From Acidobacteriota bacterium (lineage in GTDB: Bacteria; Acidobacteriota; Thermoanaerobaculia; Thermoanaerobaculales; Sulfomarinibacteraceae): a DNA stretch of 64,000 bases. Under the pieces are notes generated by a model that saw only the letters and a program-made list of their open reading frames with translations, was not told the origin of the DNA and made no database searches. Location: the NCBI GenBank assembly GCA_022340665.1, contig JAJDNM010000029.1:15627-79626 (forward strand), written 5' to 3'. Below, piece by piece: positions 6,111-53,307 of the stretch; position 1 is the stretch's first letter, and every line of letters starts with the position of its first letter. The translations under genes were made by a program, and so were the position numbers.

Positions 6111-6120
6111 GCCGGTCTCT

Positions 6121-7233: not shown

Positions 7234-8240
7234 GAACCGTCTGTTTTCACCGCGTCGTCGGGCTTCCTTTCGTCTTCCACCTCACGGATCACGAAACCGG
7301 GTCTTCCCTTGACCTCCTCGTGGATCCGCCAGATGTACTCGGCCACGATCCCGATGCTGAGGAGGATCAATCCGTTGAACATCATCATGACGATGATCGT
7401 CGTCGCCCAGCCGTGGGTCTGGAAACCGAAGAGGCTCGAATCGGCGAAGATCCTCGCCCAGGCGATGAGAACAACCAAGAAGAGACAGGAGACGAAGATG
7501 CCCAACCCGAGCACGGTGATCAGCCTCAGCGGGTAGGAGGACGATCCGAAGAAAGTCGCGGCCGCCATGCGAACTTTCTTGCGCAGGGTCCATCTCGATG
7601 GTCCGGGCGGAGCCGGCCTGTCGTATGCGAGGAAGACGGGTGAGAACCCGAGCCGCAGGACCTCGAGCACCGGCGTGGTGTTGATCGGGTGGATCTTCGA
7701 GTTGAGAATGTCCACCACCTCCCTGTCGGCCAGAAAGCGATCGGACCCCCCAGGTGGGAAGGCGACATCCGAAAACTGGTTCATGACGCCCCAGTAGAGG
7801 CTGGAGAAGAAATCGTTCAACCGGCCGTCGTCGCGAGACCGGCGGTGGGCCACGATGACCTTGTTGCCCTGCTCCCACGAACGGTACATTTCGACCACCA
7901 CATTCAAGGGGCATTGATGGTCGTCCGGCAGCGACGTCACACAAGCGCCACGGGCAACCGACAGGCCGGCGAACTGCGAGTACGGGCTGCTGTAGTTCCT
8001 GCTCAGCTGGAACGCGCGCAGGCGAGCGTCTTCCCGGGCGAGCTGACGGGCCAGATTGAAGGACCGGTCGGTAGAACCGTCATCCATGATGATGAGCTCG
8101 AACGGGATCTGCTCCGCTTCCATCGTCCGGACGACTTCGTCGACCGCGGGCCGCAGACGTTGCTCGCTTTGGAACGAGAGCAGGACGATGGACAACAACC
8201 CGGATTCATTCTCCGTGAGTTTCGATCGAGTGCCCGACAT
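7230..8240 (-). CDS. GT2 glycosyltransferase, polyprenyl-phosphate sugar synthase type (ArnC/GtrB/DPM1-like) with C-terminal TM helices
   Basis: Start ATG at 8240 with GGAGAG RBS. LSIVLLSFQSEQRL...ELIIMDDGSTDRS motif. Two C-terminal TM segments typical of ArnC/GtrB. The longer ORF upstream of 8240 overlaps the GtrA frame and is rejected. Confidence 0.85.
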   Translation of the reverse strand: MSGTRSKLTENESGLLSIVLLSFQSEQRLRPAVDEVVRTMEAEQIPFELIIMDDGSTDRSFNLARQLAREDARLRAFQLSRNYSSPYSQFAGLSVARGACVTSLPDDHQCPLNVVVEMYRSWEQGNKVIVAHRRSRDDGRLNDFFSSLYWGVMNQFSDVAFPPGGSDRFLADREVVDILNSKIHPINTTPVLEVLRLGFSPVFLAYDRPAPPGPSRWTLRKKVRMAAATFFGSSSYPLRLITVLGLGIFVSCLFLVVLIAWARIFADSSLFGFQTHGWATTIIVMMMFNGLILLSIGIVAEYIWRIHEEVKGRPGFVIREVEDERKPDDAVKTDGS

Positions 8241-8641
8241 CACACCTCTCTCCGTTTCAGGAAGGCTGACGAGAAACCGAAGTTCCACATCGCCGTGACC
8301 GGGAGCACCAGCAGCGGCAGGACCCAGTTCTCGAAGGGCAACACCGCCCGGTAGATCCTCAGCAGCACGACTCCGACGCCCATCGACGACAGGTAGACAC
8401 CGTAATACAGAATCATTCTCTTGACGGACAGTGCACTCTGAAATGTGAAAATGCTGTTCAGGAAGTACGACACATTGATCGCCAAGCAGTAGACGCACAC
8501 CCAGGTCACAATCAACGGGGTTCGGAAGAACTTGAGCAGCACGATGTTCGTGCCCGTCGCGATGCAGGTCACGACTGCCCCGACCACTGAAAAATGCGGA
8601 AGGCGCTTGAGCCTGGCCACGACTCCGGTTTCTTGTCGCAT
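8240..8641 (-). CDS. GtrA-family small membrane protein (polyprenyl-P-sugar flippase family)
   Basis: 133 aa with 4 predicted TM helices (LPHFSVVGAVVTCIATGTNIVLLKFF...). Start ATG 8641. TGATG overlaps with both neighbours. Confidence 0.75.
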   Translation of the reverse strand: MRQETGVVARLKRLPHFSVVGAVVTCIATGTNIVLLKFFRTPLIVTWVCVYCLAINVSYFLNSIFTFQSALSVKRMILYYGVYLSSMGVGVVLLRIYRAVLPFENWVLPLLVLPVTAMWNFGFSSAFLKRREV

Positions 8642-9072
8642 TACACCGGTTCCGACTGGCTTCGCAATGAACGGAACTCCTCGAGGCTCCGAATATAGTC
8701 GTTGGGCAGATATTCCTCTGATTCGAATGCGAGCTGCACCGCCCCTTCGGTGTACTTCATCGTGCGCCAGCACATTCGAGGTAGGAAAAGGCCGACCTCC
8801 GGCCGGTCGAGCAGAAAGTCTTCCAACCGGCCGGATACCATCTCGGTTGCGACCTCGATTCTCCCGCTCACCGCCAGCAGCAAGGTCTGGGTTTGGCGGT
8901 GTGCGTGGTGCCCTCGTGTCACGTCGGGAGGAGTGCCGCAGGTCCAGAATACCCGCCGCACGCGGAAGGGAATATCGTTCGTCAGCTCCGCCAGGGTGAG
9001 GACTCCAGTCGACGAGTTTCCGAACGAGGCGAACTCGATGAGACGGGGTGTTGTCGATTGGTTGACCGACAT
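8641..9072 (-). CDS. WxcM/FdtA-like cupin domain protein (dTDP-4-keto-6-deoxyhexose 3,4-ketoisomerase family)
   Basis: 143 aa. RVFWTCGTPPDVTRGHHAHRQTQTLLLAVSGRIEV matches the FdtA/QdtA cupin His motif. Start ATG 9072 overlapping the upstream stop (TGATG). Confidence 0.75.
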   Translation of the reverse strand: MSVNQSTTPRLIEFASFGNSSTGVLTLAELTNDIPFRVRRVFWTCGTPPDVTRGHHAHRQTQTLLLAVSGRIEVATEMVSGRLEDFLLDRPEVGLFLPRMCWRTMKYTEGAVQLAFESEEYLPNDYIRSLEEFRSLRSQSEPV

Positions 9073-17973: not shown

Positions 17974-20900
17974 CTACAGCAATCTCTCGTTCGCGTCATC
18001 ACCGAGGGCTATGACGGATCGGAAAAGGGCTCTGACGATCTCGATATTGTTGGACAGGAGATCGAAGAAGTCTTCGGCTTCTATGATCAGCATTCGTGAT
18101 TCGGTGGTCGCAACTGCATCGCCCGACCGGGTGTGACCGCTGAGGATATCGAGAACACCGAAACGTCCGCTCGGCCCGATCACCACCCCGTGTTCCTCGT
18201 CGGCACCCAGCCGCACCTTCCCTTCGACCACACAGAAGAGGCTGTCGGCGGGCTCATCGCGGCGGAAGATTACCTCGTCCTTGTCATAGGTGTGCTCGCT
18301 GGCAATCGCCGCCAACCTGAGGACCTGCTCCGCGTTGCAGTGGGCAAAGAGATCGACCCCCTGTAGAAAGACCATCATCTCGATCTGTGCCATCTGGCCC
18401 ATATCGGTGTCTCCTCCCCTCGCGATCACTCCCCGGGTTCTCGGGCCGGCCTTGACCTTGTTTGTAACCCAGGCGGCAGTCTCCTTGACCATCTGGTCCT
18501 CCGTTTCCTCTGCCAGCGCCGCCACCTCCGGGTAGAGCTTTTCGATCTCCTCGTCCCACACGTTGTAGAGAGCCGCGAGGATGATGCCGATGGCGCTCGG
18601 GTCGCGCCGCGGGTCGATCTGGATCATCCGATGAAGTGCCTGTTCCGGAGATTGAACCTGAGTCCCGAATATCTGATGTGCACGCCTGAGCTTGTCCTCC
18701 AGCGGGGCATCATCGATCACCGCGAACAGATCGCGGCGCAATGAACCTGAAAGCGTGTTGTCGAGGTACTCGAGCGAGCGCGCCCGAAGCTTGTTGTTGC
18801 CCGTGAGGAGGCTCCGTTGGGCGGCCCGCACATCCTCCGGGTTCTCGACCAGCTCGAGTAGAGAGAAGATGTTGCCGACCGAGTCGACCAATCGTTGAGC
18901 GAGCAGCTGCTGCGGCAGCGTCGGCACGCGGCCATCGACCTTCCAAACGGCCAGCGGCCCGTCCAATCGCGCTTCATGAAGCGACGACACCGCCCATAGG
19001 TCGGCGAGATTCTGCAGATAGCGCGAGGCCTCTTTGCTGAGCTCACGGGTTATTTTCCGCCGACTGAACTTGAGGTCGGGATAGCGGGACCGCAGATAGC
19101 TCAATGCTTCGATAATCTTCGTGCGCAGCATCGAGTCGGAGGCGTCAAGGCTCTCCAGCAGGACATCCACCGCCTTTTGAGATCCGATCAGAGCGATCGT
19201 CTTGGGTACCGCCCGGCGAACCCAGATCTGCTCGTCGTCAGATCGCATGAAGAGCAGTAGCGGCTCGATAGCCACGACGCCCTGGGCCACCAGCGCCTCG
19301 CGGGCCTCGTGCTTGAGTCTCCGATTTCCCGTCAAGGAGATGAGGATGGTTGCGTAGAGGGGATTCGGTCCGCTACGCGCGACCCGCTGGCGAACCGCGT
19401 GAATCGCTTCCTGGATCACTTTCAGGTCACGATCGTAAAGAAGCAGAACCAGGATGTCACTCGCCGTAGGATCGTCGACCTGGCCGAGAGCGCCGGCCGC
19501 CTCGGCCCGGACGCAGGGATTGTCATCCGCGACCATTTCGGAAAGCACGTTTTCGGCTTTCTCCCGGGCCTCGCCCTCTCCTCCCCCGAGAAGGCCGGCA
19601 ACGGCAGACGCCCTTAGACGCGGGTTTTTCTCTTCGAGGTGCTTCAGCATCAGGCTGGCGGCATACTCTTTCCGGAGCTGGGCGAGGGTCCGCATGGCGC
19701 CGGTGCGGACCTCGGCATCGCTGTCGCCGAGGGCGCGCTCCACCAGATCGGCTGCATCCTCGCGGCCCGTTTCAGCCAGGATGTCGAGTGTCCTGCGGCG
19801 CACCTCCGCGCTGTCATGATGGAGCAGCACCGGCGGGACGAGTCGTCCCTCACCGCTCGACGACAGGAGATCGAGACTGTGGAGGACCTTGCGCGGATCC
19901 GAGCTTCCGAGTGCCTCGACCAGAGTCGTCACGGTTGTCACGTCACTGGAATCGATCGTCGCATCGGTCTGGATGACGCCGGATTTCAGGCCTTCTCGAA
20001 AGGCGGTCACGTACTCGCGCCGGGTGCGGATCGTCAGTGCCAGCCAGCCGATGGCGAGAAACAGAGTCACCACGCTCACCCAGGTGGCAGACAGAAAGGT
20101 CAGGATTACCAGGATCAGAATCGCCGCGGCGCCCTTGCTGAACCGCTGGATGAAGACATCGATGAACGCCTTCGCCTTGATCCGCAATTCCTCCGCGACC
20201 GGCATGAAGAGAAGCTCCCGGGTGGCCTGATCGACCGAGTGTCGGAGGCTGTTTTCGCCGAGGAATAGGATCCACACGAGCGGATAGACGATGAGCGTGG
20301 CCGGCGAGAAAACGATGGCCAGCACCACCGCCAGTTGAGCCAGAACCACCGTGCCGGGCAACACGCGCATTCCGACGCTCACCCCCAGGACCCGGTGGAT
20401 GCGGCCAGTGAAGATCAGCTGGAAGAGAAAGCCGACAAGACCCATCAGAATGAAGGCGTACGCGAAGACCGACGTCCGCTGGTCGAGGTTTTTGGTGTGC
20501 AGTTCGACATACCAGTTGAATTGCCAGCCGACGAGTTGGCCAATCATGACCGAGGCAGCCATCAGGAGGGCGATCATTGCCAGCAGCCTCGAACCTCTCA
20601 GGGTGCTGAGCCCGCCACGCGCCTCGTCATATCGGAGTTTGCGAATCGACCGTGGAGGCCTGTCAGGGTGTGCCCGGCGCCGCTCGATGAGGACCAGCAG
20701 GATGGGAAGGACGAGCAGCAGCGCCGCGGCGGCGAGCAGGATGTAGCGAGTGCCCGCGACGCGGGTCACCGCCGCAGCCAGCAGCCCGCCCAATGTGGCT
20801 CCGAGCAGACCGCCCGCACCGATGAAGGAGAACAGACGCCGAGCCTGCCTTGCGTCGAAGACCTGGTTCGCATACGTCCAGAACTGCGACACGGCGATCG

Positions 20901-21348
20901 CGAACGCCATCCCCAGCCACACGTAGTAGAGCGCCGCGACCCATCCTCGTCCGATGCTGAAGAGGTAAAAGAAAAGGACCAGCCCGATGACGTGCAGCAG
21001 GGTGCCGCCCAGGATCAGCATCGGCAGACGCACGCGCATGGCCGCGCGCGAATAGAGCACCAGGACCGGAAGGGAGACTGCGGCGACCGCGAGATAGACC
21101 CACGGGAGGTTCTCTGCACCGAGGGAATCAATGAAGGTCGCCTGCCGGACGGATTTGCTCGCGAAGTGAACCGTCGTCAGGATCAGGAATTCAAAAAAGA
21201 ACAGCCACGCCAACCCGCCCTCACCCCGCCGAATTCCGAAAATGCCGCCCCCGAAATCGCGGAGCCTGCCGCCGGAACGCATCGCGTTGCCGACCGAGAG
21301 TCTCTCGTGCGCAGCCGAGTCCGTCGTTCTTGGTCTCACTCTCGCCAA
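17974..21348 (-). CDS. multi-domain membrane protein: N-terminal TLC/NTT-like (ATP:ADP antiporter family) transporter, central HEAT (PBS-lyase type) repeats, C-terminal cyclic-nucleotide-binding domain
   Basis: N-terminus GLAWLFFFEFLILTTVHFASKSVRQATFIDSLGAENLPWVYLAVAA with ~12 TM helices resembles nucleotide transporters. HEAT repeats include AEVRRRTLDILAETG, DAEVRTGAMRTLAQL and NPCVRAEAAGALGQV. cNMP domain: FLQGVDLF...FGVLDIL...RSGDAVA. Likely start at internal ATG (MRSGG..., ~21282). Confidence 0.8.
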   Translation of the reverse strand: MARVRPRTTDSAAHERLSVGNAMRSGGRLRDFGGGIFGIRRGEGGLAWLFFFEFLILTTVHFASKSVRQATFIDSLGAENLPWVYLAVAAVSLPVLVLYSRAAMRVRLPMLILGGTLLHVIGLVLFFYLFSIGRGWVAALYYVWLGMAFAIAVSQFWTYANQVFDARQARRLFSFIGAGGLLGATLGGLLAAAVTRVAGTRYILLAAAALLLVLPILLVLIERRRAHPDRPPRSIRKLRYDEARGGLSTLRGSRLLAMIALLMAASVMIGQLVGWQFNWYVELHTKNLDQRTSVFAYAFILMGLVGFLFQLIFTGRIHRVLGVSVGMRVLPGTVVLAQLAVVLAIVFSPATLIVYPLVWILFLGENSLRHSVDQATRELLFMPVAEELRIKAKAFIDVFIQRFSKGAAAILILVILTFLSATWVSVVTLFLAIGWLALTIRTRREYVTAFREGLKSGVIQTDATIDSSDVTTVTTLVEALGSSDPRKVLHSLDLLSSSGEGRLVPPVLLHHDSAEVRRRTLDILAETGREDAADLVERALGDSDAEVRTGAMRTLAQLRKEYAASLMLKHLEEKNPRLRASAVAGLLGGGEGEAREKAENVLSEMVADDNPCVRAEAAGALGQVDDPTASDILVLLLYDRDLKVIQEAIHAVRQRVARSGPNPLYATILISLTGNRRLKHEAREALVAQGVVAIEPLLLFMRSDDEQIWVRRAVPKTIALIGSQKAVDVLLESLDASDSMLRTKIIEALSYLRSRYPDLKFSRRKITRELSKEASRYLQNLADLWAVSSLHEARLDGPLAVWKVDGRVPTLPQQLLAQRLVDSVGNIFSLLELVENPEDVRAAQRSLLTGNNKLRARSLEYLDNTLSGSLRRDLFAVIDDAPLEDKLRRAHQIFGTQVQSPEQALHRMIQIDPRRDPSAIGIILAALYNVWDEEIEKLYPEVAALAEETEDQMVKETAAWVTNKVKAGPRTRGVIARGGDTDMGQMAQIEMMVFLQGVDLFAHCNAEQVLRLAAIASEHTYDKDEVIFRRDEPADSLFCVVEGKVRLGADEEHGVVIGPSGRFGVLDILSGHTRSGDAVATTESRMLIIEAEDFFDLLSNNIEIVRALFRSVIALGDDANERLL

Positions 21349-33311: not shown

Positions 33312-35138
33312 GTGACCATGATCGACAGTGGTGCCGGAGCAACAAACAGAAAGTTGATACCAAGGTTGAAATCGTCAGGGGTACGACAAACCTGGATGCT
33401 CGTCGCCGTAGCCATGGCAGGCGTGGCCGCGGTGCCAATGGTCACGTCCGCCCGTACAATCAATCGCCTACCGCCGGAACTCTGCGCAATCGAAGAACGG
33501 TCGGACCTCGGAATGGTAGCTACTGGCTCGCCCGAGGCCACCCGGGCCGCGGTCGACGTCCTCGAGCGGGGAGGCAACGCGATCGACGCGGCGGTTGCAG
33601 CGGCTCTGGTGCTGGGCGTCGTCGATTTCGACGCCTCCGGCATCGCCGGCGCAACCAACATGCTGGTCCACCTGGCGAGTGGCCGCACCCTTGCGGTCGA
33701 TGGGACCTCGAAGGCGCCCCTGAAAATTGACATCGAGAGATTCAGGAGGTTCAAAGCGAGCGGGCGAACATACGGTTACGAGGCCATCGCCGTCCCGACC
33801 ACACTCGCGTCGCTCGAGTACGCAAGGGAAAGATTCGGCACCATGCCGATGGCCACCCTCCTCGAGCCCGCCATCCAAGCCGCAGAGCACGGTTATCCGC
33901 TGACCGATATCCAGGTCATGTGGACGAAGAAGTACTACGACAACATCATGGATTCGCCGCCCTATGTGCGCTACCTCACAATGGAGGATGGACGCACGAT
34001 TGGTGAGCGCGGAGATCGGCACTGCCGCCCGGATCTCGCCGCAACCCTTCGTGCCATAGCGGAGGAAGGCGTCCGCAGCTTCTACTTCGGGAATATCGCC
34101 CAGAGAATCGAGGAAGACATGATTCGTGGGGGCGGTTTCCTCCGTCGATCGGATCTGGCGACCGTCCGCATCCGCGAGGTGCAGCCACTTCACACGACCT
34201 ACCGGGGCTTCGACGTCTACACCTTTCCGCCACCGGGCGGAGGTGCAGGTGTGGTGACCGCTCTCAACCTGCTCGAAACGTATCCGAGCGAATTCCTGGC
34301 CGCGGACTCGGTCGAGAGGCTCCACGTCATGATCGAGTCGTTTCGGATTGCCGCGGCCGACTCCCGAGTGGCCGCGAATCTCAGGAACCATTTTGGCCCC
34401 CACCCCTTGAGCAAGAGATACGCTCGCGAACGCGTCAAGCTGATCACCCCGGCGCGAATGATCCCCGCGGAGTCGCTGGCGACCCCGATCCCTCCGGAAT
34501 GTGACCAGCCCGGTGAGAGCACCACCCAGGTTTCGGTTGCCGACCAATGGGGCAACATCGTATCCCTCACCCAGACTCTCAGCCGCTCATTCGGCGCGAA
34601 AATCGCTACGCCTGGTCTCGGTTTTCCCTACAACAGCTTTCTCGAAAACTACAACGCCGACAAACCGCAGTGCCCGGGCTATCTGCAGCCCAACAGCCCG
34701 TGCACGACTGACATGGCGCCGACCATCGTTTTGCATGATGGGGTGCTGGTCGCCGCCCTCGGCACACCCGGGAGCAACAGGATTTCCACCGTGGTCAGCG
34801 CAGTCATCAGCAATGTTGTCGACCGCGGCATGGGGATACGCGACGCGGTATGTGCTCCCAGGGTTTTGTGGGGAGGTATGTCCCGCAGGCGGGCATTTGT
34901 CGAGGTTGCCGGCCGGGTTTCCGAGCAGGATGTCGATGACCTCGAACAAATCGGGTACGAAGCGATGACCGTGCTTCGCTTTCCACCGCCCGACGACGAC
35001 ACAATGGCCAAATTCGGTGGCGTCAATGCTGTCGGTTATGACCCTCAGACCTTGAGCTTCACCGGCGTCGGAGATCCCCGACGCAACGGTTTTGCACTCG
35101 GGCCACGGGTCGTGGCAGGACAGGGCGTCCCCCACTGA
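33312..35138 (+). CDS. gamma-glutamyltranspeptidase (GGT, Ntn-hydrolase) 1
   Basis: GGNAIDAAVAAALVLGVVD, GESTTQVSVADQWGNIVSLTQTL (Thr nucleophile) and GLGFPYNS. The likely real start is an internal ATG 33396 with signal peptide MLVAVAMAGVAAVPMVTSA. Confidence 0.9.
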   Translation: MTMIDSGAGATNRKLIPRLKSSGVRQTWMLVAVAMAGVAAVPMVTSARTINRLPPELCAIEERSDLGMVATGSPEATRAAVDVLERGGNAIDAAVAAALVLGVVDFDASGIAGATNMLVHLASGRTLAVDGTSKAPLKIDIERFRRFKASGRTYGYEAIAVPTTLASLEYARERFGTMPMATLLEPAIQAAEHGYPLTDIQVMWTKKYYDNIMDSPPYVRYLTMEDGRTIGERGDRHCRPDLAATLRAIAEEGVRSFYFGNIAQRIEEDMIRGGGFLRRSDLATVRIREVQPLHTTYRGFDVYTFPPPGGGAGVVTALNLLETYPSEFLAADSVERLHVMIESFRIAAADSRVAANLRNHFGPHPLSKRYARERVKLITPARMIPAESLATPIPPECDQPGESTTQVSVADQWGNIVSLTQTLSRSFGAKIATPGLGFPYNSFLENYNADKPQCPGYLQPNSPCTTDMAPTIVLHDGVLVAALGTPGSNRISTVVSAVISNVVDRGMGIRDAVCAPRVLWGGMSRRRAFVEVAGRVSEQDVDDLEQIGYEAMTVLRFPPPDDDTMAKFGGVNAVGYDPQTLSFTGVGDPRRNGFALGPRVVAGQGVPH

Positions 35139-35172
35139 CACGACACCCTCAGTGTGGAACAATGAGCACCCG

Positions 35173-36963
35173 ATGATTCGCGCAGTTCGTGCATCCGTAA
35201 AGGCAGCCAACCTCCTCGCCCGTGGCGCCCTTGCCCTGACCGTTGGGTTACCGATCGGGGGTTGCGCTCACGGCGGTCGAAGTGACGACTCCTCGGTCGT
35301 CGCGCCCCTCTACGCCCCCGAGGCCCATTCGGACCTAGGCATGGTATCCACCGGGTCGATTGAAGCGACCCAAGCGGGCGTCACAATTCTCGAGTCCGGG
35401 GGCAACGCGATCGATGCCGCGGTGGCGGCGGCTCTCGCTCTCGGGGTCGCAGATCCGGGTGGATCCGGGCTTGGCGGAATGACCTATATCCTGATCTCGT
35501 TCGCCGACGGCCGGTCGATCGCAGTAGATGGCTCGGCCATCGTGCCCGTTGGAGCCGACCGCAAAGCGCTGGCAGAAATTCAGGCTTCCGAGGAACGATT
35601 CGGCGCCAGGGCAGTGGCAGTTCCAATGGCTCTCGCTGCCATGAGCCACGCTCTCGAGCGGCACGGCACCATGAGCTTTGCACGGGTGGCTGCGCCCGCA
35701 ATCAAGATTGCTGTGAATGGATATCGCCTCAGCCCCAATTCTATCTCGTGGGCCAACAGCTATCTCGACGACATCATGGCCTCTCGCTACCTCAGATTCG
35801 TCGCACTTGACGCCGGGGAACGAGTGGGCACACCGGGCGATCTGGTCTGCCGTCCCGATCTTGTCACCACCCTGAGAGTGCTTGCTGCAGAGGGCCCAGA
35901 CTCCTTCTATCGCGGCAGCATCGCACGGAGCATGCTGATTGATCTCTCGAGCCTCGGCGGATACCTCCGTCCGATCGATCTCGTGTCGACCAAGGCGGCA
36001 GAGCTGCAGCCGCTATCCTCGGAGTATCGCGGCGCGGAAGTCTTGTCCTACCCGTGGCCCGGAGGCGGCGGCGAGGTCGTGGCGATGCTCAACATCATTG
36101 AACAACTAGAATTCGATCTGCTACGCACGCCGTCGGTCGAACGCCTGCACGTAATGATCGAGGCCTCTCGGCTGGCCCGCGCCGATTTCCTGAGGTCCGC
36201 CTCCGGCCCAGCGCAACACGCTTCCAGCCTTGCCGGCCAGCTCTCCAAAGCCTACGCGAGGGAACGCGCCAGCCTGATCACTCCCGGCCGGGCACTCCCT
36301 GAGGATCTCGTTCAATCTTCCGGTTCCGCGGCCAGGATGGGCAACCACACCACCCACATCTCGGTCGCGGATCGCTGGGGTAACGCGGTCGCCATGACTC
36401 AGACCCTGTGCCGCCAGTACGGTGCGAAAGTCGCAACTCCAGGCCTCGGGTTCCCATACAACAGCTGCCTCGAGTTCTTCGATTTCGAGAATGAGGCCAG
36501 CCCCATCTATCTGCGCCCGCGGGCGCTCTACGCGTCCAACATGGCACCGACCATCGTTCGCCACGAGGGAACACTGCTGATTCTCGGCAGCGCCGGATCC
36601 GACCGTATCCCCGGTTCGGTCGTCGAGGTTATCAGCAACGTGTTCGACCGACAGATGGGAATCCGGGACGCCGTCACGGCTCCACGCGCACTGTGGAACA
36701 GTGCTCACGAACCGGACCGGATCTGTATTGAGATCGCGGACCCGATCTCCCATGCCGACGCCGACGAGCTCCAGAGCTTCGGCTTCGAACACATGTTCCG
36801 CCTCGATTACCTGGCCGGTCCCGTCAACGATGCCCCGTTTTTCGGCGGTGTCAACGCAGTACTCTACCAACCCGCGACCGGAAAATATTCTGGTGTCGGC
36901 GATCCCCGGCGCAACGGGTTCGCGCTCGGTCCGAGAGCGATCGTGCAGCGGGAGGGGCATTGA
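35173..36963 (+). CDS. gamma-glutamyltranspeptidase (GGT) 2, lipoprotein paralog
   Basis: NHTTHISVADRWGNAVAMTQTL and GLGFPYNS. Signal with lipobox PIGGC. Start at ATG 35173 (the ORF-track start 35092 overlaps GGT1). Confidence 0.9.
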   Translation: MIRAVRASVKAANLLARGALALTVGLPIGGCAHGGRSDDSSVVAPLYAPEAHSDLGMVSTGSIEATQAGVTILESGGNAIDAAVAAALALGVADPGGSGLGGMTYILISFADGRSIAVDGSAIVPVGADRKALAEIQASEERFGARAVAVPMALAAMSHALERHGTMSFARVAAPAIKIAVNGYRLSPNSISWANSYLDDIMASRYLRFVALDAGERVGTPGDLVCRPDLVTTLRVLAAEGPDSFYRGSIARSMLIDLSSLGGYLRPIDLVSTKAAELQPLSSEYRGAEVLSYPWPGGGGEVVAMLNIIEQLEFDLLRTPSVERLHVMIEASRLARADFLRSASGPAQHASSLAGQLSKAYARERASLITPGRALPEDLVQSSGSAARMGNHTTHISVADRWGNAVAMTQTLCRQYGAKVATPGLGFPYNSCLEFFDFENEASPIYLRPRALYASNMAPTIVRHEGTLLILGSAGSDRIPGSVVEVISNVFDRQMGIRDAVTAPRALWNSAHEPDRICIEIADPISHADADELQSFGFEHMFRLDYLAGPVNDAPFFGGVNAVLYQPATGKYSGVGDPRRNGFALGPRAIVQREGH

Positions 36964-39820: not shown

Positions 39821-42670
39821 TTGACTTACGTTGAGACACCTTTTTGGGTTCTACATCGGCTCGACTGGTTCCACCCTCCACCCACCCACGGCCAAACAGC
39901 ATTACGGGTGAGGTCATCCGGCAAAATCTACGCGCGTCGCTCCATCTCTACAGCACCACATCGCTGGAAAGCCGATCGGCCGTATCGCCGTCGAGCCGTA
40001 AAGCCGCTCCGACTTCAATACAATGGGCGCGTGGAGATCATTACAACCCACCTCTCGGCCGATTTCGATGCGTTCGCCGCAGCCGTGTGCTCGGTTCGAC
40101 TGTATCCTGGCGCCAAGGTGCTTTTTCCGGGTTCTCAGGAGGCGGCAGTGCGGCGTTTCCTCGCTGATACGGACCTCAGTTACCCTGAGTTCAAGCTGCG
40201 AGCTGCACGGACCGCAGGTATCGAGCATGTAGTGGTGGTCGATACCCGCAGCCCGTCGCGCCTCGGTGAGGTCCACGATCTTATCCAGCGAAACCGATGT
40301 CGGATCACCGTGATCGACCATCACACGGAGGATGACGACAACGATCTCGACGCGGATCAGGTTTTCGAACGCCCGGTCGGCGCAACCTGTACGATCGTCG
40401 CCGAACTCTTTCGCGAGCGCGGCATCGAACCGACCGAGGACGAAGCGACTCTCCTTCTCATGGGTATCTACGAGGACACCGGTGGTCTTTCCTACCGCGA
40501 GACCACGGCCGATGATCTCCGCATCAGCGCATGGCTTCTCGAACGGGGCGCTTCGCTCGGATGGGTGAGACGGTGGGTTCTCAAGGCTCTCCAACCCGAG
40601 CAATTGGAGCTGCTCAACCGGATGGTCGAGGCCACCGAGCAAGTCATGGTGGCGGGGACCCCCGTCGCGCTGTCGATGATCGAGGTGGATGAATACCACG
40701 AGGAGGCAGCATTCGTCGTACACCGATGGGTCGAGATCTTCGAGATCGCTGTCGGTGCAGTCATGCTCGTACGACCGCCGAACATCAATCTGATCCTGCG
40801 GTCCCGTCTCCCGGACCTTCACATCGGGAAGGTGGCTCAGCGGTTCGGGGGCGGTGGCCATCCGACTGCAGCGTCGGCGCGAGTCACCGGTATGATGCCC
40901 GTTGAACTCAGGGAAACGTTGCTCGAAACACTCGCAGTCGAAATGCCGCCGCCGGCGACCGCCATCGACATCGCCGTCCGCACGATTTTTTCAATCGATG
41001 ACACAAACAACGTCGAGGAGACCAAGAACCGGATCAACCAGCTTCGAGTCAATGCCCTTCCCGTCCGTGACAGCGGAACCGGTGAGTTGATCGGCCTCGT
41101 AACACGACAAACCCTGGACTACGCCCTCAGCCACGAGATGGGCAACCGACCCGTGCGCTCGGTGATGCAGCCTGAGCTACCGGTCGTATCGGCAGCCATC
41201 CCGCTCGATGACCTCCGGGACATCTTCCTTGAACGTTCCTACCGTTTCGTGGTCGTCGAAGATGCTGGTCGACCCGCCGGCATCGTCACCCGGATGGAGC
41301 TCTTCCGCCGTCTTTTCGAGCAGCAATACGATACCGGTTCCACGCTTGACCACCGAATGGCGGGGACCCGCCCCGTCAGCCAGCCCATCACCCGCCTTCT
41401 GCGAGATTTCTCGCCCCCTTGGGTCCAGCGTCTGGTGTCCGCGGCCCGGGAGGTCGCCGACCGCCTCGGCGTCTCGGTTTACCTGGTCGGCGGCATGGTC
41501 CGTGACATGCTGCTCCAACGAGCGAACGAGGACATCGACCTGGTCGTCGAGGGCGACGGCATCGCGTTCGCCGAAGCACTGGCGGAGATGCTGGGCGGCC
41601 GCCACCATCCGCATGCGCCGTTTTTGACCGCTGTCGTCACACTCCCCGACGGCCTCCGGGTCGACGTAGCTTCGGCACGCACCGAGTTCTACCGCACGCC
41701 CGCAGCGCTCCCTGAGGTCGAGACTTCCTTGATTCGCCAGGATCTCTACCGTCGTGATTTCACCATCAACGCCCTTGCGGTTGCGCTCTCGGGTGAACGT
41801 TACGGCGATCTCGTCGATTTCTTCGGCGGCCGCAAGGATATCCAACGTCGGGAGATCAGAGTGCTCCACTCACTCTCATTCATCGACGATCCGACCCGGG
41901 CGCTCCGTGCCGTGCGATACGCGCGCCGGCTCGGTTTCGACATCGCCAGTGACACCCGCAACCTGATTGCCACGGCCCTCGAGGAGGGCGTTTTCGAACG
42001 CCTGTCGGGTCAGCGTCTTCGGCGCGAACTCGAACACCTGTTGGCTGAGCCACACCCGACCCCGGCGCTCGAACTGGTCGCCGATATCGGGCTCATGCCG
42101 GCCATCTGCCCAGGCCTGGAGTGGTCCGAGGACATTCAAAGCTATCTCATGGAGTTGGAAGGCCAGCTCGCCTGGCATCAGCTCGAACAGCTCGGCTCAC
42201 CTCCCGAACAATGGATGCTGTTCCTCGGTGGATTGGCGCTTTCGTCTGGCCCCGACGCCGTGATCCGCCTGGTCGAGAGACTCCAGCTTGGCGGTCCGGT
42301 GAAAGACCGTTTTCTGGCGCTACCGGAGGCGGTGGAAGCGATCAAGGCGGCCGCGGAACCTGACCTGTCCACATCCCAGCGGGCAAATGCGATCGAGCAA
42401 CACTCGACGGAGTCACTATTGCTCGCGATGTCAGAGCTGCAGATGGAATCGCGACGCAGGCTGGCCAACGCATCGGTCTCGAACGCGCGGACCCGGATGC
42501 CAATCACCGGGCAGCAGCTGATCGACGGCGGAATGTCACCCGGCCCGCACATCGGACGAGCCCTCAAGCTGACCCGCGATGCACTCATCGACGACATGAT
42601 CGAAACCGAAGACGCTCTCTCCTGGGCACTTGAAACCGCCCGCTCGCTGGAACGGGAGACGATCCCGTGA
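39821..42670 (+). CDS. cca: multi-domain tRNA nucleotidyltransferase (CCA-adding/poly(A) polymerase head domain) fused to N-terminal DHH-DHHA1 phosphoesterase and CBS domains
   Basis: DHH motifs (ITVIDHHTED, GGGGHPTAASA), a CBS pair, then PolyA_pol head (VYLVGGMVRDMLL...DIDLVV...RDFTINALA). The ORF-track ATG 39821 is 3 bp from the divergent gene start; the real start is probably downstream (for example GTG ~40031). Confidence 0.8.
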   Translation: MTYVETPFWVLHRLDWFHPPPTHGQTALRVRSSGKIYARRSISTAPHRWKADRPYRRRAVKPLRLQYNGRVEIITTHLSADFDAFAAAVCSVRLYPGAKVLFPGSQEAAVRRFLADTDLSYPEFKLRAARTAGIEHVVVVDTRSPSRLGEVHDLIQRNRCRITVIDHHTEDDDNDLDADQVFERPVGATCTIVAELFRERGIEPTEDEATLLLMGIYEDTGGLSYRETTADDLRISAWLLERGASLGWVRRWVLKALQPEQLELLNRMVEATEQVMVAGTPVALSMIEVDEYHEEAAFVVHRWVEIFEIAVGAVMLVRPPNINLILRSRLPDLHIGKVAQRFGGGGHPTAASARVTGMMPVELRETLLETLAVEMPPPATAIDIAVRTIFSIDDTNNVEETKNRINQLRVNALPVRDSGTGELIGLVTRQTLDYALSHEMGNRPVRSVMQPELPVVSAAIPLDDLRDIFLERSYRFVVVEDAGRPAGIVTRMELFRRLFEQQYDTGSTLDHRMAGTRPVSQPITRLLRDFSPPWVQRLVSAAREVADRLGVSVYLVGGMVRDMLLQRANEDIDLVVEGDGIAFAEALAEMLGGRHHPHAPFLTAVVTLPDGLRVDVASARTEFYRTPAALPEVETSLIRQDLYRRDFTINALAVALSGERYGDLVDFFGGRKDIQRREIRVLHSLSFIDDPTRALRAVRYARRLGFDIASDTRNLIATALEEGVFERLSGQRLRRELEHLLAEPHPTPALELVADIGLMPAICPGLEWSEDIQSYLMELEGQLAWHQLEQLGSPPEQWMLFLGGLALSSGPDAVIRLVERLQLGGPVKDRFLALPEAVEAIKAAAEPDLSTSQRANAIEQHSTESLLLAMSELQMESRRRLANASVSNARTRMPITGQQLIDGGMSPGPHIGRALKLTRDALIDDMIETEDALSWALETARSLERETIP

Positions 42671-45796: not shown

Positions 45797-45910
45797 CGCT
45801 CGATGCTGGATGCTCGATGCCGGATCCTGGATGTTGGATGCAAGAGAATTATCGGTCCACCGCTTCAGCTGGCGGCGAAGCGGATCTAGCATCCATGATC
45901 TAGCATCCAG
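45797..45910. repeat. inverted blocks of CTGGATG/CTCGATG heptamer repeats around a small GC hairpin (ccgcttc...gaagcgg)
   Basis: Left block gctcgatgctggatgctcgatgccggatcctggatgttggatg. Right block ctagcatccatgatctagcatccag, the reverse complement of the same family. Confidence 0.85.
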
Positions 45911-47735: not shown

Positions 47736-47978
47736 GGGGGGATCCTCTCCGACCCGCAACAGCGGGCGCGCTGTTGTAACACCTGGGGTCTTCAGGGTCA
47801 ATGGGCGCAGAATGAATTCGGATTTCGGAATTCGGAATCTGAATTTTCACACGTAGGGCAAATCTGCCGAAACAGTACTTAAAAATATACTCAGTCTCAG
47901 AAATGGTTGACTTCTTTCTGGTAACAGGTATCTTTTCGATTGGCGCGATTTCTCGAGGCAATTGGCGGGGAACCGGTG

Positions 47979-49412
47979 ATGAAATTCGAATGCTCGGTCT
48001 GCGGCTACATCTACGACGAGGAGGTGGAGGGCCTTCCCTTTGATCAACTGCCTGATGACTGGGAATGTCCCGTCTGCAGCGCGGACAAGAGCTGTTTCGA
48101 GGCCCAGGAAGACTCCGCCGCTGATGCTGAAACACAGACCGAGACTCCCGGTGAAGGCGAAGCCGGACTCGAGACCTACCTCGCCGAGTGGAAGCGCTCG
48201 TCAGACGATTTCGAAGCGCAATTCGCAGCGATCCAACACGCGGCGGTGACCGGAAAATCGATCATCGAACCGATGCGCACCCGCAAGCCGGTAGTGTCCT
48301 GGGACGAGATCCTAGTGATGGGAGCCCAACTCGCCTGTTTGCCGCAAAACGATGAGGATCCGGTTTCGACACGCACGGTGATCGGCCCCGAGGCAACGCA
48401 CCCACTCGAGATGTCGATCCCGGTCTTCGTCAGCCACATGTCCTTCGGAGCCCTGTCGAGAGAGGCGAAGATTGCTCTCGCGAAAGGGTCCGCGGCGGCC
48501 GAGACCGCCATGTGTTCCGGTGAGGGCGGCATCGTGCCCGAGTCGCTCGAGGCATCGCACCGTTACATTTTCGAGTACGTTCCCAACCGCTACAGTCTGA
48601 CTGACGAGAACCTGCAGGCGGTGGACGCGATCGAGATCAAGATCGGCCAGTCGGCCAAGCCCGGCATGGGCGGCCACCTGCCGGGCTGCAAGGTGACCGA
48701 AGAGATCGCCGCCGTCCGCGGCTTTCCCGCTGGCGAGGATGTCGTCAGTCCGGCGCATTTCGACGACATCACCAATCCGGATCAGCTCGGCGAGAAGATT
48801 GCCTGGCTGCGAGAAAAATCGAAAGGCAAGCCGATCGGCATCAAGCTCGCCGCAGGTCACATCGAGGCTGATCTCGAAATCGCTCTGCGCGCACACCCGG
48901 ATTTCGTGACCATCGACGGGCGGCCGGGGGCCACCGGCGCCGCATCCAAGGCCGTCAAGGACGCAGCCGCAGTTCCGACCATCTACGCGCTGGCCCGCGC
49001 TCGCCGATACCTGGATTCGATGATGGCCGAAGGCATATCGCTGGTGGCAACCGGCGGATTCCGGTCATCTTCGGACATCGTCAAGGCACTCGCCATGGGG
49101 GCGGACGCCGTCGCCATCGCGTCGGCGGCGATGATCGCCATCGGCTGCCAGCAATATCGAGTTTGCGACACCGGCCGCTGCCCGGTCGGTGTCGCCACAC
49201 AAGATCCCGAGCTTCGATCACGCTTCGATATCGACAGATCGGCCGAAAGGCTCGCCAATTTCTTCCGCGTCGTGAGGAGTGAGCTCGAGGACTTCACCAG
49301 GCTCACCGGTCACGAAGATGTTCACGACCTCAGCGTCGCCGATCTCCGCACCACCAGCTCGGAAATTTCGAAACATTCCAACATCGCCCACGTGGGCGAA
49401 TCGACCGATTGA
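47979..49412 (+). CDS. rubredoxin-domain fused to glutamate-synthase FMN-binding (GltS_FMN) domain protein
   Basis: N-terminus [15 protein letters not shown]...[12 protein letters not shown] (rubredoxin CxxC x2). The remainder matches the GltB central FMN/Fe-S domain ([34 protein letters not shown]). Confidence 0.8.
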
Positions 49413-49423
49413 AGGAGGATCCA

Positions 49424-49945
49424 ATGTCCAAGACCCAAGAAAACCTGATGGCCGCATTTGCCGGGGAAAGCCAGGCCCGCAACATGTACACCTACTTCGC
49501 CAAGGTGGCGCGCAAAGAGGGCTACCATTACATCGCGAAGATCTTCGAGGAAACCGCTATCAACGAGATGCGGCACGCCAAGGACGAGTTCGTGCTCGCC
49601 GGCGGCCTGGGCGATACGGTCGCCAACCTCAAGAAAGCCGTCGAGGGAGAGGACTACGAGACCACAACGATGTACCAGGATTTTGCAGCCACTGCCGAGG
49701 AGGAAGGCAACAAACAGGCGGCGATTCTCTTCAGGATGATCGCCCGAGTCGAGGCCGAACACCGCGACCGATACAAGAAGATCCTCGAGATGGTCGAGAA
49801 CGGCACCGTCTACAAGCGGGACGAACCCATCCGCTGGAAGTGCGCGGTCTGCGGCTACATTCACGAGGGCACCGAGCCGCCCGCAAAATGCCCGTGCTGC
49901 CAACACCCGCGCGAGTACTTCGAGCCGGAGAACATGGAGTTCTGA
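49424..49945 (+). CDS. rubrerythrin (diiron ferritin-like domain + C-terminal rubredoxin-like CxxC-x12-CxxC)
   Basis: MSKTQENLMAAFAGESQARNMYTYFA...EMRHA...EAEH and C-terminal KCAVCGYIHEG...KCPCCQHP. Confidence 0.9.
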   Translation: MSKTQENLMAAFAGESQARNMYTYFAKVARKEGYHYIAKIFEETAINEMRHAKDEFVLAGGLGDTVANLKKAVEGEDYETTTMYQDFAATAEEEGNKQAAILFRMIARVEAEHRDRYKKILEMVENGTVYKRDEPIRWKCAVCGYIHEGTEPPAKCPCCQHPREYFEPENMEF

Positions 49946-51663: not shown

Positions 51664-51850
51664 CCGATTCGCGATGCTCGATGCTCGAAACTGGATGCTG
51701 GTTCCTGGATGCTGGATGCTGGATGCTGGATGCTGGATGCTGGATGCTGGATGCTGGATGCACCGAGCGCATAAGCCATCTCGCTGAATTGTCAAGTGGT
51801 GGGAGGGTGGATCGAGTATCCAGCATCTAGTATCGAGCATCTGGACGGGT
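51664..51850. repeat. long imperfect palindrome built from CTGGATG heptamers (8+ tandem GCTGGAT copies at 51690-51754; inverted copies at 51806-51836)
   Basis: Directly read. Occupies the whole gap between the convergent phosphodiesterase and REC-LpxC genes. Confidence 0.92.
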
Positions 51851-51858
51851 GGTTGGGC

Positions 51859-53154
51859 TCAGCTGTTGGCGGCAAGAATCTGGCGCTGGATCTCGATGTT
51901 GTCGCGGTGGCCGGTGAGGTGGGCGGTCACCTTGCCGCGCACCGGGTAGCCGAGCATATAGAGATCGCCGACGATGTCGAGGATCTTGTGGCGCACGAAC
52001 TCGTCGGAGAAACGGAGCTCAGTATTGATGACGTTGTCCTCACCGACGAGGATAAAGTTGTCGAGCCGGCCGCCGGTGCCGAGGCCGAGCTCGTTGATCA
52101 TCTTGAGGTCGCGCATGAATCCGAACGTCCGGGCCGGGGCGATCTCCTCACGAAACGCTTCACATTCGGTCATCTCGAAGTCGTAGAACTGGTCGCCCAC
52201 CGGCGGCGGGTAGGCGAGTTGGTAGGAAACCGAGAAGCCGTCCGATGGCTCGATCACCAGCGATTTCTCACCCTCACCTACCTCGTACCGGCGATCGATG
52301 ACGAGTTCCTTGACCGGCGCATCCTGTTCGACGATCCCAACCGCCTCGAGCCTTTCGAGGAAGCTGAGAGCCGAGCCGTCAAGCACCGGGATCTCTCCGT
52401 GAACCTTGACCAGCATGTTGGTGATACCGCAGGCGTGCAGGGCTGACAGCAGGTGTTCGACGGTGCGGATGCTCTCGCCTTTGGCCGTCAGGGTCGTCGC
52501 ATAATCGGTTTCGGCAACCGAGTTCACATGAGCGGGCATGGTGACGCCGCTCGGCAACGTGATGAAGTGGATGCCGGTGTCGGGAGGAAGGGGCTGGATC
52601 ACCATGCCGGTTCGGCCGCCGGAGTGGAGGCCGAGGCCGTATATCACGCTGGCATCACGAATCGTTTTCTGGCGGCGGTCGGTGGTCTCGAGAATCGGCA
52701 GCTCCGGAGGCGGCTCGAACTTCATGATCGGTTCGATGCGTGCCCGGCTCTCCTCGAGAACCCCGGCACCGGCATCCTCGTCCTTCGCACGCTTCGCTTC
52801 GAGCGCATCCTTGACGGCTCTGAGCGTCCGGTCGTACGAGAGGGGCTTCTCGAGGTAGTCGTGGGCACCCATCTTGATCGCCTTGACCGCGGTCTCCGAC
52901 GTCCCGTGGCCGGACATCATGACGACCATCGCGTTCGGGTCGACATCGCGCAGCGCCTGGAGGGTCTCGAGGCCATCCCAGTCGGGTAGCCAAATGTCGA
53001 GGAATACAACCTCCGGACGCTGTTCGCGAAATAGATGGAGGGCCTCCTCGCCGCTGGTCGTCGTGATCGTGCGGTAGCCCTCGTCGCCGAGAATCTGCGA
53101 CAGGGTCGTCAGAATCCCGGTTTCGTCGTCAACGATCAGAATGAGTTCGTTCAT
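51859..53154 (-). CDS. lpxC: response-regulator receiver domain fused to UDP-3-O-acyl-N-acetylglucosamine deacetylase (LpxC)
   Basis: N-terminal REC (ILIVDDE...VVFLDIWLPDWDG...MMSGHG...YLEKP) followed by a full LpxC (GLGLHSGGRT, TVEHLLSALHACGI, FVRHKILDIVGDLYMLG, HLTGHRDN). Confidence 0.88.
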   Translation of the reverse strand: MNELILIVDDETGILTTLSQILGDEGYRTITTTSGEEALHLFREQRPEVVFLDIWLPDWDGLETLQALRDVDPNAMVVMMSGHGTSETAVKAIKMGAHDYLEKPLSYDRTLRAVKDALEAKRAKDEDAGAGVLEESRARIEPIMKFEPPPELPILETTDRRQKTIRDASVIYGLGLHSGGRTGMVIQPLPPDTGIHFITLPSGVTMPAHVNSVAETDYATTLTAKGESIRTVEHLLSALHACGITNMLVKVHGEIPVLDGSALSFLERLEAVGIVEQDAPVKELVIDRRYEVGEGEKSLVIEPSDGFSVSYQLAYPPPVGDQFYDFEMTECEAFREEIAPARTFGFMRDLKMINELGLGTGGRLDNFILVGEDNVINTELRFSDEFVRHKILDIVGDLYMLGYPVRGKVTAHLTGHRDNIEIQRQILAANS

Positions 53155-53307
53155 GGCGGTTCAAGTGTGATGGTTCGAAGTTTCAGGGTCAACCCAGCGC
53201 AATTGAACTTCGGATTTCGGATTTCCCGCCCCACCCCCCGGGAATTTGGGGTCAGCAAGGACAAAATTCGAAATGCGAGGGTCGCCGACATCCCCAGTTC
53301 CTCATTT

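Follow-up and report, generated by a model that had tools for sequence, protein, structure and literature searches.

Background

LpxC, a leading antibiotic target, is responsible for the essential step that controls flux through lipid A synthesis, and its regulation outside the enterobacteria is an acknowledged gap, according to a 2025 review of lipid A regulation in the Journal of Biological Chemistry, which describes proteolysis via FtsH/LapB/YejM, binding of MurA, possibly Lon, and indirect transcriptional control via NtrYX/ChvGI (PMC12444477). The described systems closest to the gene presented here are two-component systems of the NtrC/NtrX type. In Desulfovibrio vulgaris, lpxC is the single mapped DNA target of the NtrC-family regulator DVU2934 (Rajeev et al. 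2011, PMC3333781), and in Syntrophobacter fumaroxidans the lpxC gene is located directly upstream of the orthologous regulator operon (PMC3333781). Loss of ntrYX in Rhodobacter sphaeroides increased lpxC mRNA 8.8-fold and raised lipopolysaccharide (LPS) levels, with no binding of NtrX at lpxC (PMC7240162), while the NtrYX-family system PlrSR has a third, periplasmic component in the DUF4390 protein PlrP (PMC13001219). Here we describe a gene encoding a response-regulator receiver domain (REC) fused to LpxC, located on a stretch of 64,000 nt from an Acidobacteriota bacterium (assembly GCA_022340665.1, contig JAJDNM010000029.1, positions 15,627 to 79,626), which is referred to below as the window. 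We propose, with a probability of roughly 60%, that control of LpxC by an NtrY-type kinase has moved from transcription to a receiver carried on the enzyme itself.

Response regulators with enzymatic outputs are known, and include the CheB methylesterase, the PleD/WspR diguanylate cyclases and the RpfG HD-GYP phosphodiesterase. Judged by its domain composition, the window protein appears to be of this known kind, with an output that seems not to have been described previously. LpxC as the output of a response regulator was present in no paper of the searched literature, and no description of a REC-LpxC or NtrX-LpxC fusion was found in the full-text literature that was searched, including the 2025 review; an entry in a table of an older response-regulator census is possible.

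Domain architecture of the REC-LpxC protein

The REC-lpxC gene is located at positions 51859..53154 of the window on the minus strand, and consists of one uninterrupted open reading frame (ORF) with an ATG start, encoding 431 amino acids (aa) followed by a stop codon. The G+C content at third codon positions (GC3) was 0.82 in the ORF listing, which is similar to that of the genuine genes of this 62% G+C window. A previous interpretation of the window, made without database searches (the sequence-only reading), had proposed an in-frame fusion of a receiver domain to a complete LpxC, and this was borne out when the domain architecture was checked with Pfam: Response_reg matched residues 5-114 (profile positions 1-110 of 111, E 2e-29) and LpxC matched residues 162-427 (profile positions 1-267 of 268, E 8e-85, 285 bits with a cut-off of 27), hence both domains are full length and are encoded by a single ORF. 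The lpxC equivalog model TIGR00325 of NCBIfam gave 247.6 bits, with a cut-off of 187.25. Pfam gave no Sigma54_activat (AAA+) or HTH_8 match in the window protein, and the model for the bifunctional LpxC-FabZ protein (PRK13188 / NF009667) reached 198.5 bits versus a cut-off of 465, with only profile positions 4-219, the LpxC half, being matched. The window protein is an LpxC and a receiver-domain protein by both sequence and fold, and is neither an enhancer-binding protein, nor an enterobacterial degron-bearing LpxC, nor an LpxC-FabZ protein.

There was no frameshift or stop codon at the junction of the two domains. The identical 431-aa protein is encoded on two independent metagenome contigs of the Joint Genome Institute (JGI), and in a collection of 5.8 billion proteins, 119 of the best 120 homolog clusters (71–92% identity, approximately 431 aa) carry both domains. 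Merging of two neighbouring genes by a sequencing error or mis-assembly is thus virtually excluded, since the same protein is found on independent contigs and there are at least 119 two-domain clusters of the same length; hundreds of same-length homologs in JGI, ENA, NCBI and Logan assemblies and the conservation of the junction segment PPPELxLLxTTDRxQ also argue against such an artefact. The named sources of these close homologs were Acidobacteriota, 'Holophagae', Thermoanaerobaculales and Candidatus (Ca.) Sulfomarinibacteraceae, and the REC-lpxC gene is conserved within an acidobacterial lineage that is Thermoanaerobaculales-like. Pairwise Nei-Gojobori comparison of the window gene with two orthologs gave ratios of nonsynonymous to synonymous substitution (dN/dS) of ~0.03 for the receiver, 0.07–0.10 for LpxC and 0.10–0.31 for the linker, making the receiver the most constrained part, although the values are rough because dS is >1 and saturated. 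Both domains appear to be under strong purifying selection.

Receiver domain, linker and LpxC domain

The receiver domain comprises residues 1-127 (52774..53154, minus strand, as are all features of this gene), and was assigned to the NtrX/NtrC type based on Pfam, NCBIfam and PDB matches and an AlphaFold2 (AF2) model. Its best receiver-level NCBIfam match was NtrX (117.7 bits), and its best PDB matches were the receivers of NtrC4, NtrC1 and NtrX. The window receiver is 46–54% identical to receivers of lpxC-linked NtrX proteins, versus no more than 39% to other response regulators, which were a small background set. The AF2 model has the (beta-alpha)5 receiver fold, and DSSP analysis of this model placed the strands at residues 4-8, 28-32, 49-53, 77-81 and 99-102 and the helices at residues 12-24, 35-45, 61-71, 86-94 and 107-127, the last of these being a long alpha-5 helix which reaches residue 127.

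All of the canonical phospho-acceptor residues listed in the sequence-only reading are there, being the acidic metal-binding pair D9-D10 of the receiver pocket (DD, codons at 53125..53130), the predicted phospho-acceptor D53 within LDIWLPDWDG (52996..52998), and the conserved receiver-pocket residues S81 within MMSGHG (52912-52914) and K103 within YLEKP (52846-52848). Alignment confirmed that the Asp pocket is intact, with D9, D10, D53, S81 and K103 invariant across 94 close homologs. Within 49 diverse fused representatives, D9, D10 and D53 were present in 46, 48 and 47 sequences, respectively, and this quintet and the aromatic switch residue were each kept in at least 46. The receiver could instead be an unphosphorylated vestige of the ancestral regulator, retained as a structural or dimerisation appendage, as the gene is an orphan without an adjacent kinase and the ancestral AAA+ and HTH modules did decay or vanish. 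However, loss of the Asp, Thr or Lys is typical of pseudo-receivers, whereas the pocket described here is invariant in the lineage and nearly so across fused proteins down to 33% identity, and no other part of the protein is as constrained as the receiver, with its dN/dS of ~0.03. A vestigial receiver is therefore poorly compatible with the conservation data, and we consider it very improbable.

The inter-domain linker (residues 128-160, 52675..52773) was delineated using the AF2 predicted local distance difference test (pLDDT), dN/dS and per-column conservation. It starts with a disordered tether at residues 128-143 with pLDDT <50, followed in the conservation profile by the conserved patches GVLExSR and PPPELxLL, and has a pLDDT of ~93 at residues 151-160. 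The junction segment mentioned above is confidently placed in the model, and runs into the LpxC fold. The linker as a vestige of HTH_8 was ruled out, as hhalign of the linker with a profile of the HTH_8 region gave a probability of 2.4%.

The LpxC deacetylase domain (residues 161-431, 51862..52674) is full length according to Pfam, matches LpxC chains in the PDB (E 4e-55), and has its zinc and catalytic signatures intact, as suggested previously. The signature TVEHLLSAL includes the catalytic Glu E233 and the first zinc ligand H234 (codons at 52453..52458), while FVRHKILDIVGDLY includes H389, K390, D393 and D397 of the HKxxDxxxD motif (51964..51990), which provides the His and Asp zinc ligands and a Lys and Asp, and HLTGHRDN includes the general acid His H416 (51907..51909). 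These residues align one-to-one with E77/H78, H237/K238/D241/D245 and H264 of Pseudomonas aeruginosa LpxC. The zinc ligands H234, H389 and D393 correspond to H79, H238 and D242 of Escherichia coli LpxC, and E233, H416, T343, K390 and D397, all of which are there, correspond to E78, H265, T191, K239 and D246. Each of the zinc and catalytic residues was found in 45/45 fused representatives with the exception of T343 (44/45, with a single Thr-to-Ser change), and the catalytic residues were invariant among the 94 close homologs. The AF2 model of the whole protein had a mean pLDDT of 82.8 and a predicted template modelling score (pTM) of 0.74, and its LpxC fold matched solved LpxC chains with Foldseek template modelling (TM) scores of 0.77–0.87 normalised to the target (E 4e-28); no solved chain spanning both receiver and LpxC was found in the PDB fold search. 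Both halves of the protein look functional from their sequence and predicted fold.

The C-terminal extension with the FtsH degron is absent, as the protein stops 4 residues past the Pfam domain and positions 275-297 of TIGR00325 were unmatched. The view that LpxC is normally controlled by proteolysis, as expressed in the sequence-only reading, holds for enterobacteria but not elsewhere, since MurA binding is used in Pseudomonas and NtrYX/ChvGI-dependent transcription in alpha-proteobacteria. The receiver may govern the amount or place of LpxC rather than catalysis, with phosphorylation either unmasking or masking a degradation signal or a surface for adaptors, as with RssB and CpdR, or leading to membrane recruitment, and this would replace the FtsH/LapB route of enterobacteria. 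In the best-studied systems it is the abundance of LpxC that is controlled, a protein lacking the enterobacterial degron tail would need another handle, and a flexible tether would suit a detachable regulatory module. Such a function nevertheless seems unlikely, as the receiver is of the NtrC/NtrX type rather than the RssB or CpdR type, and no protease, adaptor or LapB-like gene was linked in any locus examined, with the caveat that the sequence level does not separate control of amount or place from control of activity.

A family of NtrX-LpxC fusions

An exhaustive HMMER search over 1.84 billion representatives at 50% identity detected REC-LpxC proteins of 412–461 aa down to 33% identity, and a class of 650–736-aa proteins consisting of Response_reg, Sigma54_activat, AAA_lid_14, in some cases HTH_8, and LpxC, according to Pfam. 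This long form has the make-up of a whole NtrC/NtrX-type enhancer-binding protein to which LpxC is appended. Further architectures were REC-HTH_8-LpxC, REC-AAA+-LpxC and AAA+-LpxC, and a profile search with the long forms yielded at least 120 further clusters of 725–773 aa. The long forms and their family originated from Nitrospina, Nitrospinaceae, Ca. Nitromaritima, metagenome-assembled genomes (MAGs) of 'Deltaproteobacteria', Ca. Schekmanbacteria, Ca. Entotheonellia and a Spirochaetota bacterium, and many of the long forms are labelled 'NtrX' at JGI and plain LpxC at NCBI. From these comparisons, the window protein appears to be the shortest, reduced end-member of a large and undescribed family of NtrX-LpxC fusions, and from membership of this family an origin can be derived for the window fusion, together with NtrY as the predicted type of kinase. 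The sequence-only reading had described phosphorylation input on LpxC as an unusual regulatory architecture, which stands with regard to the absence of the fusion from the searched literature, but the window gene is no isolated oddity.

In neighbour-joining trees of the LpxC domains, all 55 fused sequences were placed in one clade. Three unfused sequences nest inside this fusion clade, two of which (P0157 and P0190) are fragments on contigs of <1 kb. The different architectures were interleaved within the clade, for example REC-AAA-HTH8-LpxC beside REC-HTH8-LpxC beside REC-LpxC, which suggests that fusion took place once and that the middle modules were subsequently lost several times. The AAA+ modules of the long forms have kept a Walker A motif of the type found in bacterial enhancer-binding proteins, but all lack the GAFTGA motif, and their Walker B motif has D-[S/D/R/G] instead of Asp-Glu. 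This pattern suggests that selection has retained the receiver and the enzyme while the transcription machinery decayed.

A gene encoding an NtrY kinase (NtrY_N, HAMP, PAS, HisKA and HATPase_c) was located directly 5′ of the long-form fusion in three of five loci (L006, L087 and L088), and was preceded by a DUF4390 gene in L006 and L088. On the 3′ side of the long-form genes there is a conserved block of purM/purN, lolA, rseP, (ispG) and proS (L006 8964-15620, L088 9212-14717, and L085/L086 9286-15875), which places the long-form fusion next to genes for outer membrane lipoprotein trafficking and an envelope-stress protease. In two Nitrospinota-type genomes the long-form fusion was orphaned, with the downstream purN-lolA-rseP-proS genes retained.

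Gene order and sigma-54 promoters of unfused lpxC genes

Unfused lpxC genes were investigated using an arbitrary sample of 80 lpxC loci, among which there were no close relatives of the window. Approximately 10 of the 80 loci had the gene order lpxC-DUF4390-ntrY-ntrX, with carriers including two Thermoanaerobaculia MAGs, Ca. Acidoferrum, a Rokubacterium, Desulfonema magnum and other Desulfobacterota. The arrangement reported for S. fumaroxidans (PMC3333781) matches this order, which is found together with a sigma-54 promoter in Acidobacteriota, Rokubacteria and Desulfobacterota. The NtrX proteins of these unfused loci have an intact GAFTGA/GSFTGA motif and Walker B motif, and the NtrY proteins of L031 and L080 are 37% identical. 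When at least 10 of 12 consensus positions were required for a sigma-54 −24/−12 promoter (background 0.019 sites per 500 nt), such a promoter was present just 5′ of lpxC in 6/10 of the lpxC-DUF4390-ntrY-ntrX loci and in 4/34 of the other lpxC genes, versus 0/9 of the fused genes and none for the window gene. In these unfused relatives, lpxC and NtrYX-type systems are linked by both gene order and sigma-54 promoters. Shared flanks would have pointed to relocation at the same locus, but within the stretches compared, unfused ntrYX-linked loci had neither the mutS nor the purM-purN-lolA-rseP flanks found at fused loci.

Strong sigma-54 matches (10–12 of 12 positions) were also found 5′ of ordinary lpxC genes lacking adjacent ntrYX, namely in the Nitrospirota MAGs L018 (7968), L034 (7949) and L036 (7949), and in Pyxidicoccus (L025, 7965). 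Since these promoters have no adjacent ntrYX, sigma-54-dependent transcription of lpxC may be common in Nitrospirota/Myxococcota, with the activator encoded elsewhere. Separately, the sample contained lpxC ORFs of 416–450 aa (L026, L061, L067, L073, L075, L082 and L084), several of approximately 437–450 aa, which matched only the LpxC part of the query, and the ~437–450-aa ORFs are probably known LpxC-FabZ fusions.

Proposed transfer of LpxC control to the enzyme

The fusion family and the gene order of unfused loci are consistent with the following scenario. The starting point may have been an lpxC gene beside DUF4390(PlrP)-NtrY-NtrX, with a sigma-54 promoter presumably driven by the NtrX-like activator. 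In one lineage, lpxC would have become fused to the 3′ end of ntrX, and the AAA+ module would afterwards have lost its sigma-54 contact loop and ATPase glutamate. Deletion of the AAA+ and DNA-binding modules would then have left REC-linker-LpxC in several sub-lineages, one being that of this Thermoanaerobaculales-like acidobacterium. We propose that D53 is phosphorylated by a membrane kinase of the NtrY type whose gene is located in another part of the genome, and that the resulting change at the alpha4-beta5-alpha5 face and long alpha-5 helix alters either dimerisation of the receiver or its docking on the tethered enzyme. The altered receiver would set LpxC output, and hence lipid A flux, post-translationally. 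Phosphorylation would most likely raise the output of LpxC, given that the ancestral regulator was a transcriptional activator of lpxC, but this direction is a guess. A broader version of this pathway can be put forward tentatively, at somewhat less than even odds, in which an NtrY-type envelope sensor kinase (with DUF4390) directly phosphorylates the LpxC receiver to set lipid A flux, lpxC was captured by its own sigma-54 activator of which the ATPase and DNA-binding modules subsequently decayed, and the fused copy is the sole LpxC in Thermoanaerobaculales-like Acidobacteriota, Nitrospinota and others.

Several observations weigh against the transfer of control to the enzyme. No histidine kinase gene adjoins REC-lpxC in the window or in the close orthologous loci L003 and L004, and no NtrY was found in the window or beside L003/L004, with no NtrY-aimed search of the lineage having been made. 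The core bipartition of the fusion clade had a bootstrap of 44/100 in neighbour-joining analysis of a smaller data set, and the dN/dS values suffer from the saturation mentioned above. The sign of the effect is not predictable, as the alpha-proteobacterial NtrYX lowers lpxC expression, and the 16-residue disordered tether in the linker makes rigid allosteric coupling appear unlikely. The ntrYX-linked unfused LpxCs were rejected as nearest relatives of the fusion clade, since they had a mean identity of 37.1% versus 37.0%. Finally, the fused LpxC subfamily has a mean identity of 37% to ordinary LpxCs, which are 42% identical among themselves, and is patchily distributed over several phyla, which would also fit a mobile accessory paralog.

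In that case the fused gene would be an accessory paralog with a conventional lpxC elsewhere in the genome, and the fusion would either increase lipid A synthesis in response to a signal or use a variant substrate. The fused LpxCs do form a separate divergent subfamily over Acidobacteriota, Nitrospinota, 'Deltaproteobacteria', Entotheonellia, Spirochaetota and Schekmanbacteria, the ordinary lpxC of other Thermoanaerobaculia MAGs is only 41% identical to the window LpxC, and fused and unfused loci have no common flanking genes within the stretches compared. Conversely, the window protein scores above the lpxC equivalog cut-off with every catalytic and substrate residue kept, is under strong purifying selection and is found in >119 clusters of the lineage, excess LpxC has been reported to be toxic, and there is no second lpxC within the 64-kb window. 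Furthermore, the DUF4390-ntrY operons of L006 and L088 lack lpxC at its usual upstream place and have the fused copy alone. On balance we consider an accessory paralog rather unlikely, and favour transfer of NtrY-dependent control from lpxC transcription to the LpxC protein.

Genomic context and candidate promoter of REC-lpxC

The REC-lpxC gene is preceded on the same strand by a metF-like gene and metH, and is convergent with genes of the phosphodiesterase family, rubrerythrin and a rubredoxin-glutamate-synthase-like protein. Two contigs of relatives, of 1.84 Mb and 0.93 Mb, have the same order metF-like/metH/REC-lpxC, with different downstream genes. Among approximately 40 ORFs across the window that were annotated with Pfam, there was no histidine kinase, second lpxC, lpxA, lpxD or lpxB gene, and in the absence of a kinase among these ORFs the window protein can be classed as an orphan response regulator. 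Likewise, no histidine kinase gene adjoins the close orthologs in L003 and L004, where only the upstream metF-like/metH synteny is conserved.

There is a gap of 153 nt after metH in which a scan did not predict a terminator and did not call a σ70 promoter; a σ54 promoter was likewise absent before the window gene, and there were no Rfam matches over the whole window. A candidate promoter for REC-lpxC itself is located at 53164..53192 on the minus strand, consisting of TTGACC (53187-53192), a 17-nt spacer and CACACT (53164-53169), and ends 9 nt before the ATG. The intergenic region between metH and REC-lpxC is divergent among the window, L003 and L004, with conservation confined to the TTGACCCT box. 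REC-lpxC has no Shine-Dalgarno sequence, and the −10-like hexamer is weak. REC-lpxC may have its own promoter and a nearly leaderless mRNA, without being co-transcribed with metH, although the support for this is weak.

The convergent gap just past the REC-lpxC stop codon contains a tandem repeat of the heptamer GCATCCA (minus strand), with 12.7 copies at window positions 51673-51761. The same array has 11.7 copies in L002 (1575-1656), the JGI contig encoding the identical protein, hence its copy number varies. Further repeats were located at 51811-51842, 53209-53225 and 45799-45819 of the window. The upstream intergenic region holds other short heptamer arrays, with TTCGGAT in the window and TCCTAAT in L004, and longer repeats in L003.

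Other features of the window

Several other regions of the window contain genes of note. Positions 4497-9788 encode a PMT_2 (ArnT-like) glycosyltransferase, a DegT/ArnB-like aminotransferase, a family-2 glycosyltransferase and a hexapeptide acyltransferase, a cluster resembling a pathway for the modification of amino sugars, the target of which may be LPS or a different glycoconjugate of the envelope. A SpoIIE/PP2C-type phosphatase gene followed by two PilZ-domain genes flanking a gene of the haemolysin-III family (13217-16840) may represent a small signalling neighbourhood related to cyclic di-GMP. The 1124-aa protein encoded at 17974-21348 on the minus strand combines MFS/TLC (ATP/ADP-transporter-like) regions with HEAT repeats and a C-terminal cyclic-nucleotide-binding domain, which is an unusual transporter architecture, while the 949-aa protein encoded at 39821-42670 on the plus strand combines a DHH phosphoesterase and CBS domains with a poly(A) polymerase/CCA-adding head. 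There were also two tandem gamma-glutamyltranspeptidase genes (33312-36963), and a gene encoding rubredoxin fused to a glutamate-synthase-like FMN domain, adjoining a rubrerythrin gene (47940-49945).

Significance and comparison with known systems

A receiver on LpxC would represent a new mode of control with direct and specific two-component input. The fusion family acts as a "Rosetta stone" connecting NtrYX-type systems to LpxC over at least 5 phyla, and offers a candidate kinase, being NtrY with DUF4390/PlrP. The architectures can be arranged as a graded series from a sigma-54 operon via a regulator-enzyme fusion with decayed ATPase to the minimal REC-LpxC, in which a regulatory link would have been rewired to the protein level. 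The family may also help to explain the envelope phenotypes of NtrX-family regulators in proteobacteria. Beyond the sequence itself the mechanism is our interpretation, and most carriers are uncultured.

The DVU2931/DVU2934 system of D. vulgaris resembles the system proposed here in family and target, as it is a dedicated NtrC/NtrX-type two-component system aimed at LpxC. It differs in that DVU2934 binds DNA and acts on transcription, whereas the window receiver is covalently attached to the enzyme, and lacks AAA+ and DNA-binding modules as well as a sigma-54 promoter. The NtrY-NtrX/PlrP systems of alpha- and beta-proteobacteria share with the window protein a receiver that is closest to NtrX, with long-form fusions located in DUF4390-ntrY-ntrX operons, and NtrYX has already been connected to the cell envelope, the lpxC mRNA level and the amount of LPS. 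In contrast, the NtrX proteins described so far are transcription factors whose regulons comprise dozens of genes and which are said not to be LpxC-specific, the effect on lpxC in R. sphaeroides is indirect and negative (PMC7240162), and the window protein has neither an AAA+ nor an HTH_8 domain, with NtrY absent from the adjoining genes.

Control of LpxC by FtsH-LapB-YejM in E. coli or MurA in P. aeruginosa depends on proteolysis via a C-terminal degron or on a partner protein, whereas the window protein is tail-less and has its own predicted phospho-switch. The LpxC-FabZ protein (PRK13188) is the sole other widely annotated LpxC fusion, but carries a metabolic partner enzyme at the C-terminus, where the window protein has a signalling domain at the N-terminus. 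CheB, PleD/WspR and RpfG are arranged in the same way, with the receiver at the N-terminus joined through a flexible or helical linker to an enzyme at the C-terminus, and suggest two generic mechanisms, relief of active-site occlusion or phosphorylation-driven dimerisation. The outputs of those response regulators are signalling enzymes, whereas the window protein has as its output an enzyme performing the committed step of a core biosynthetic pathway.

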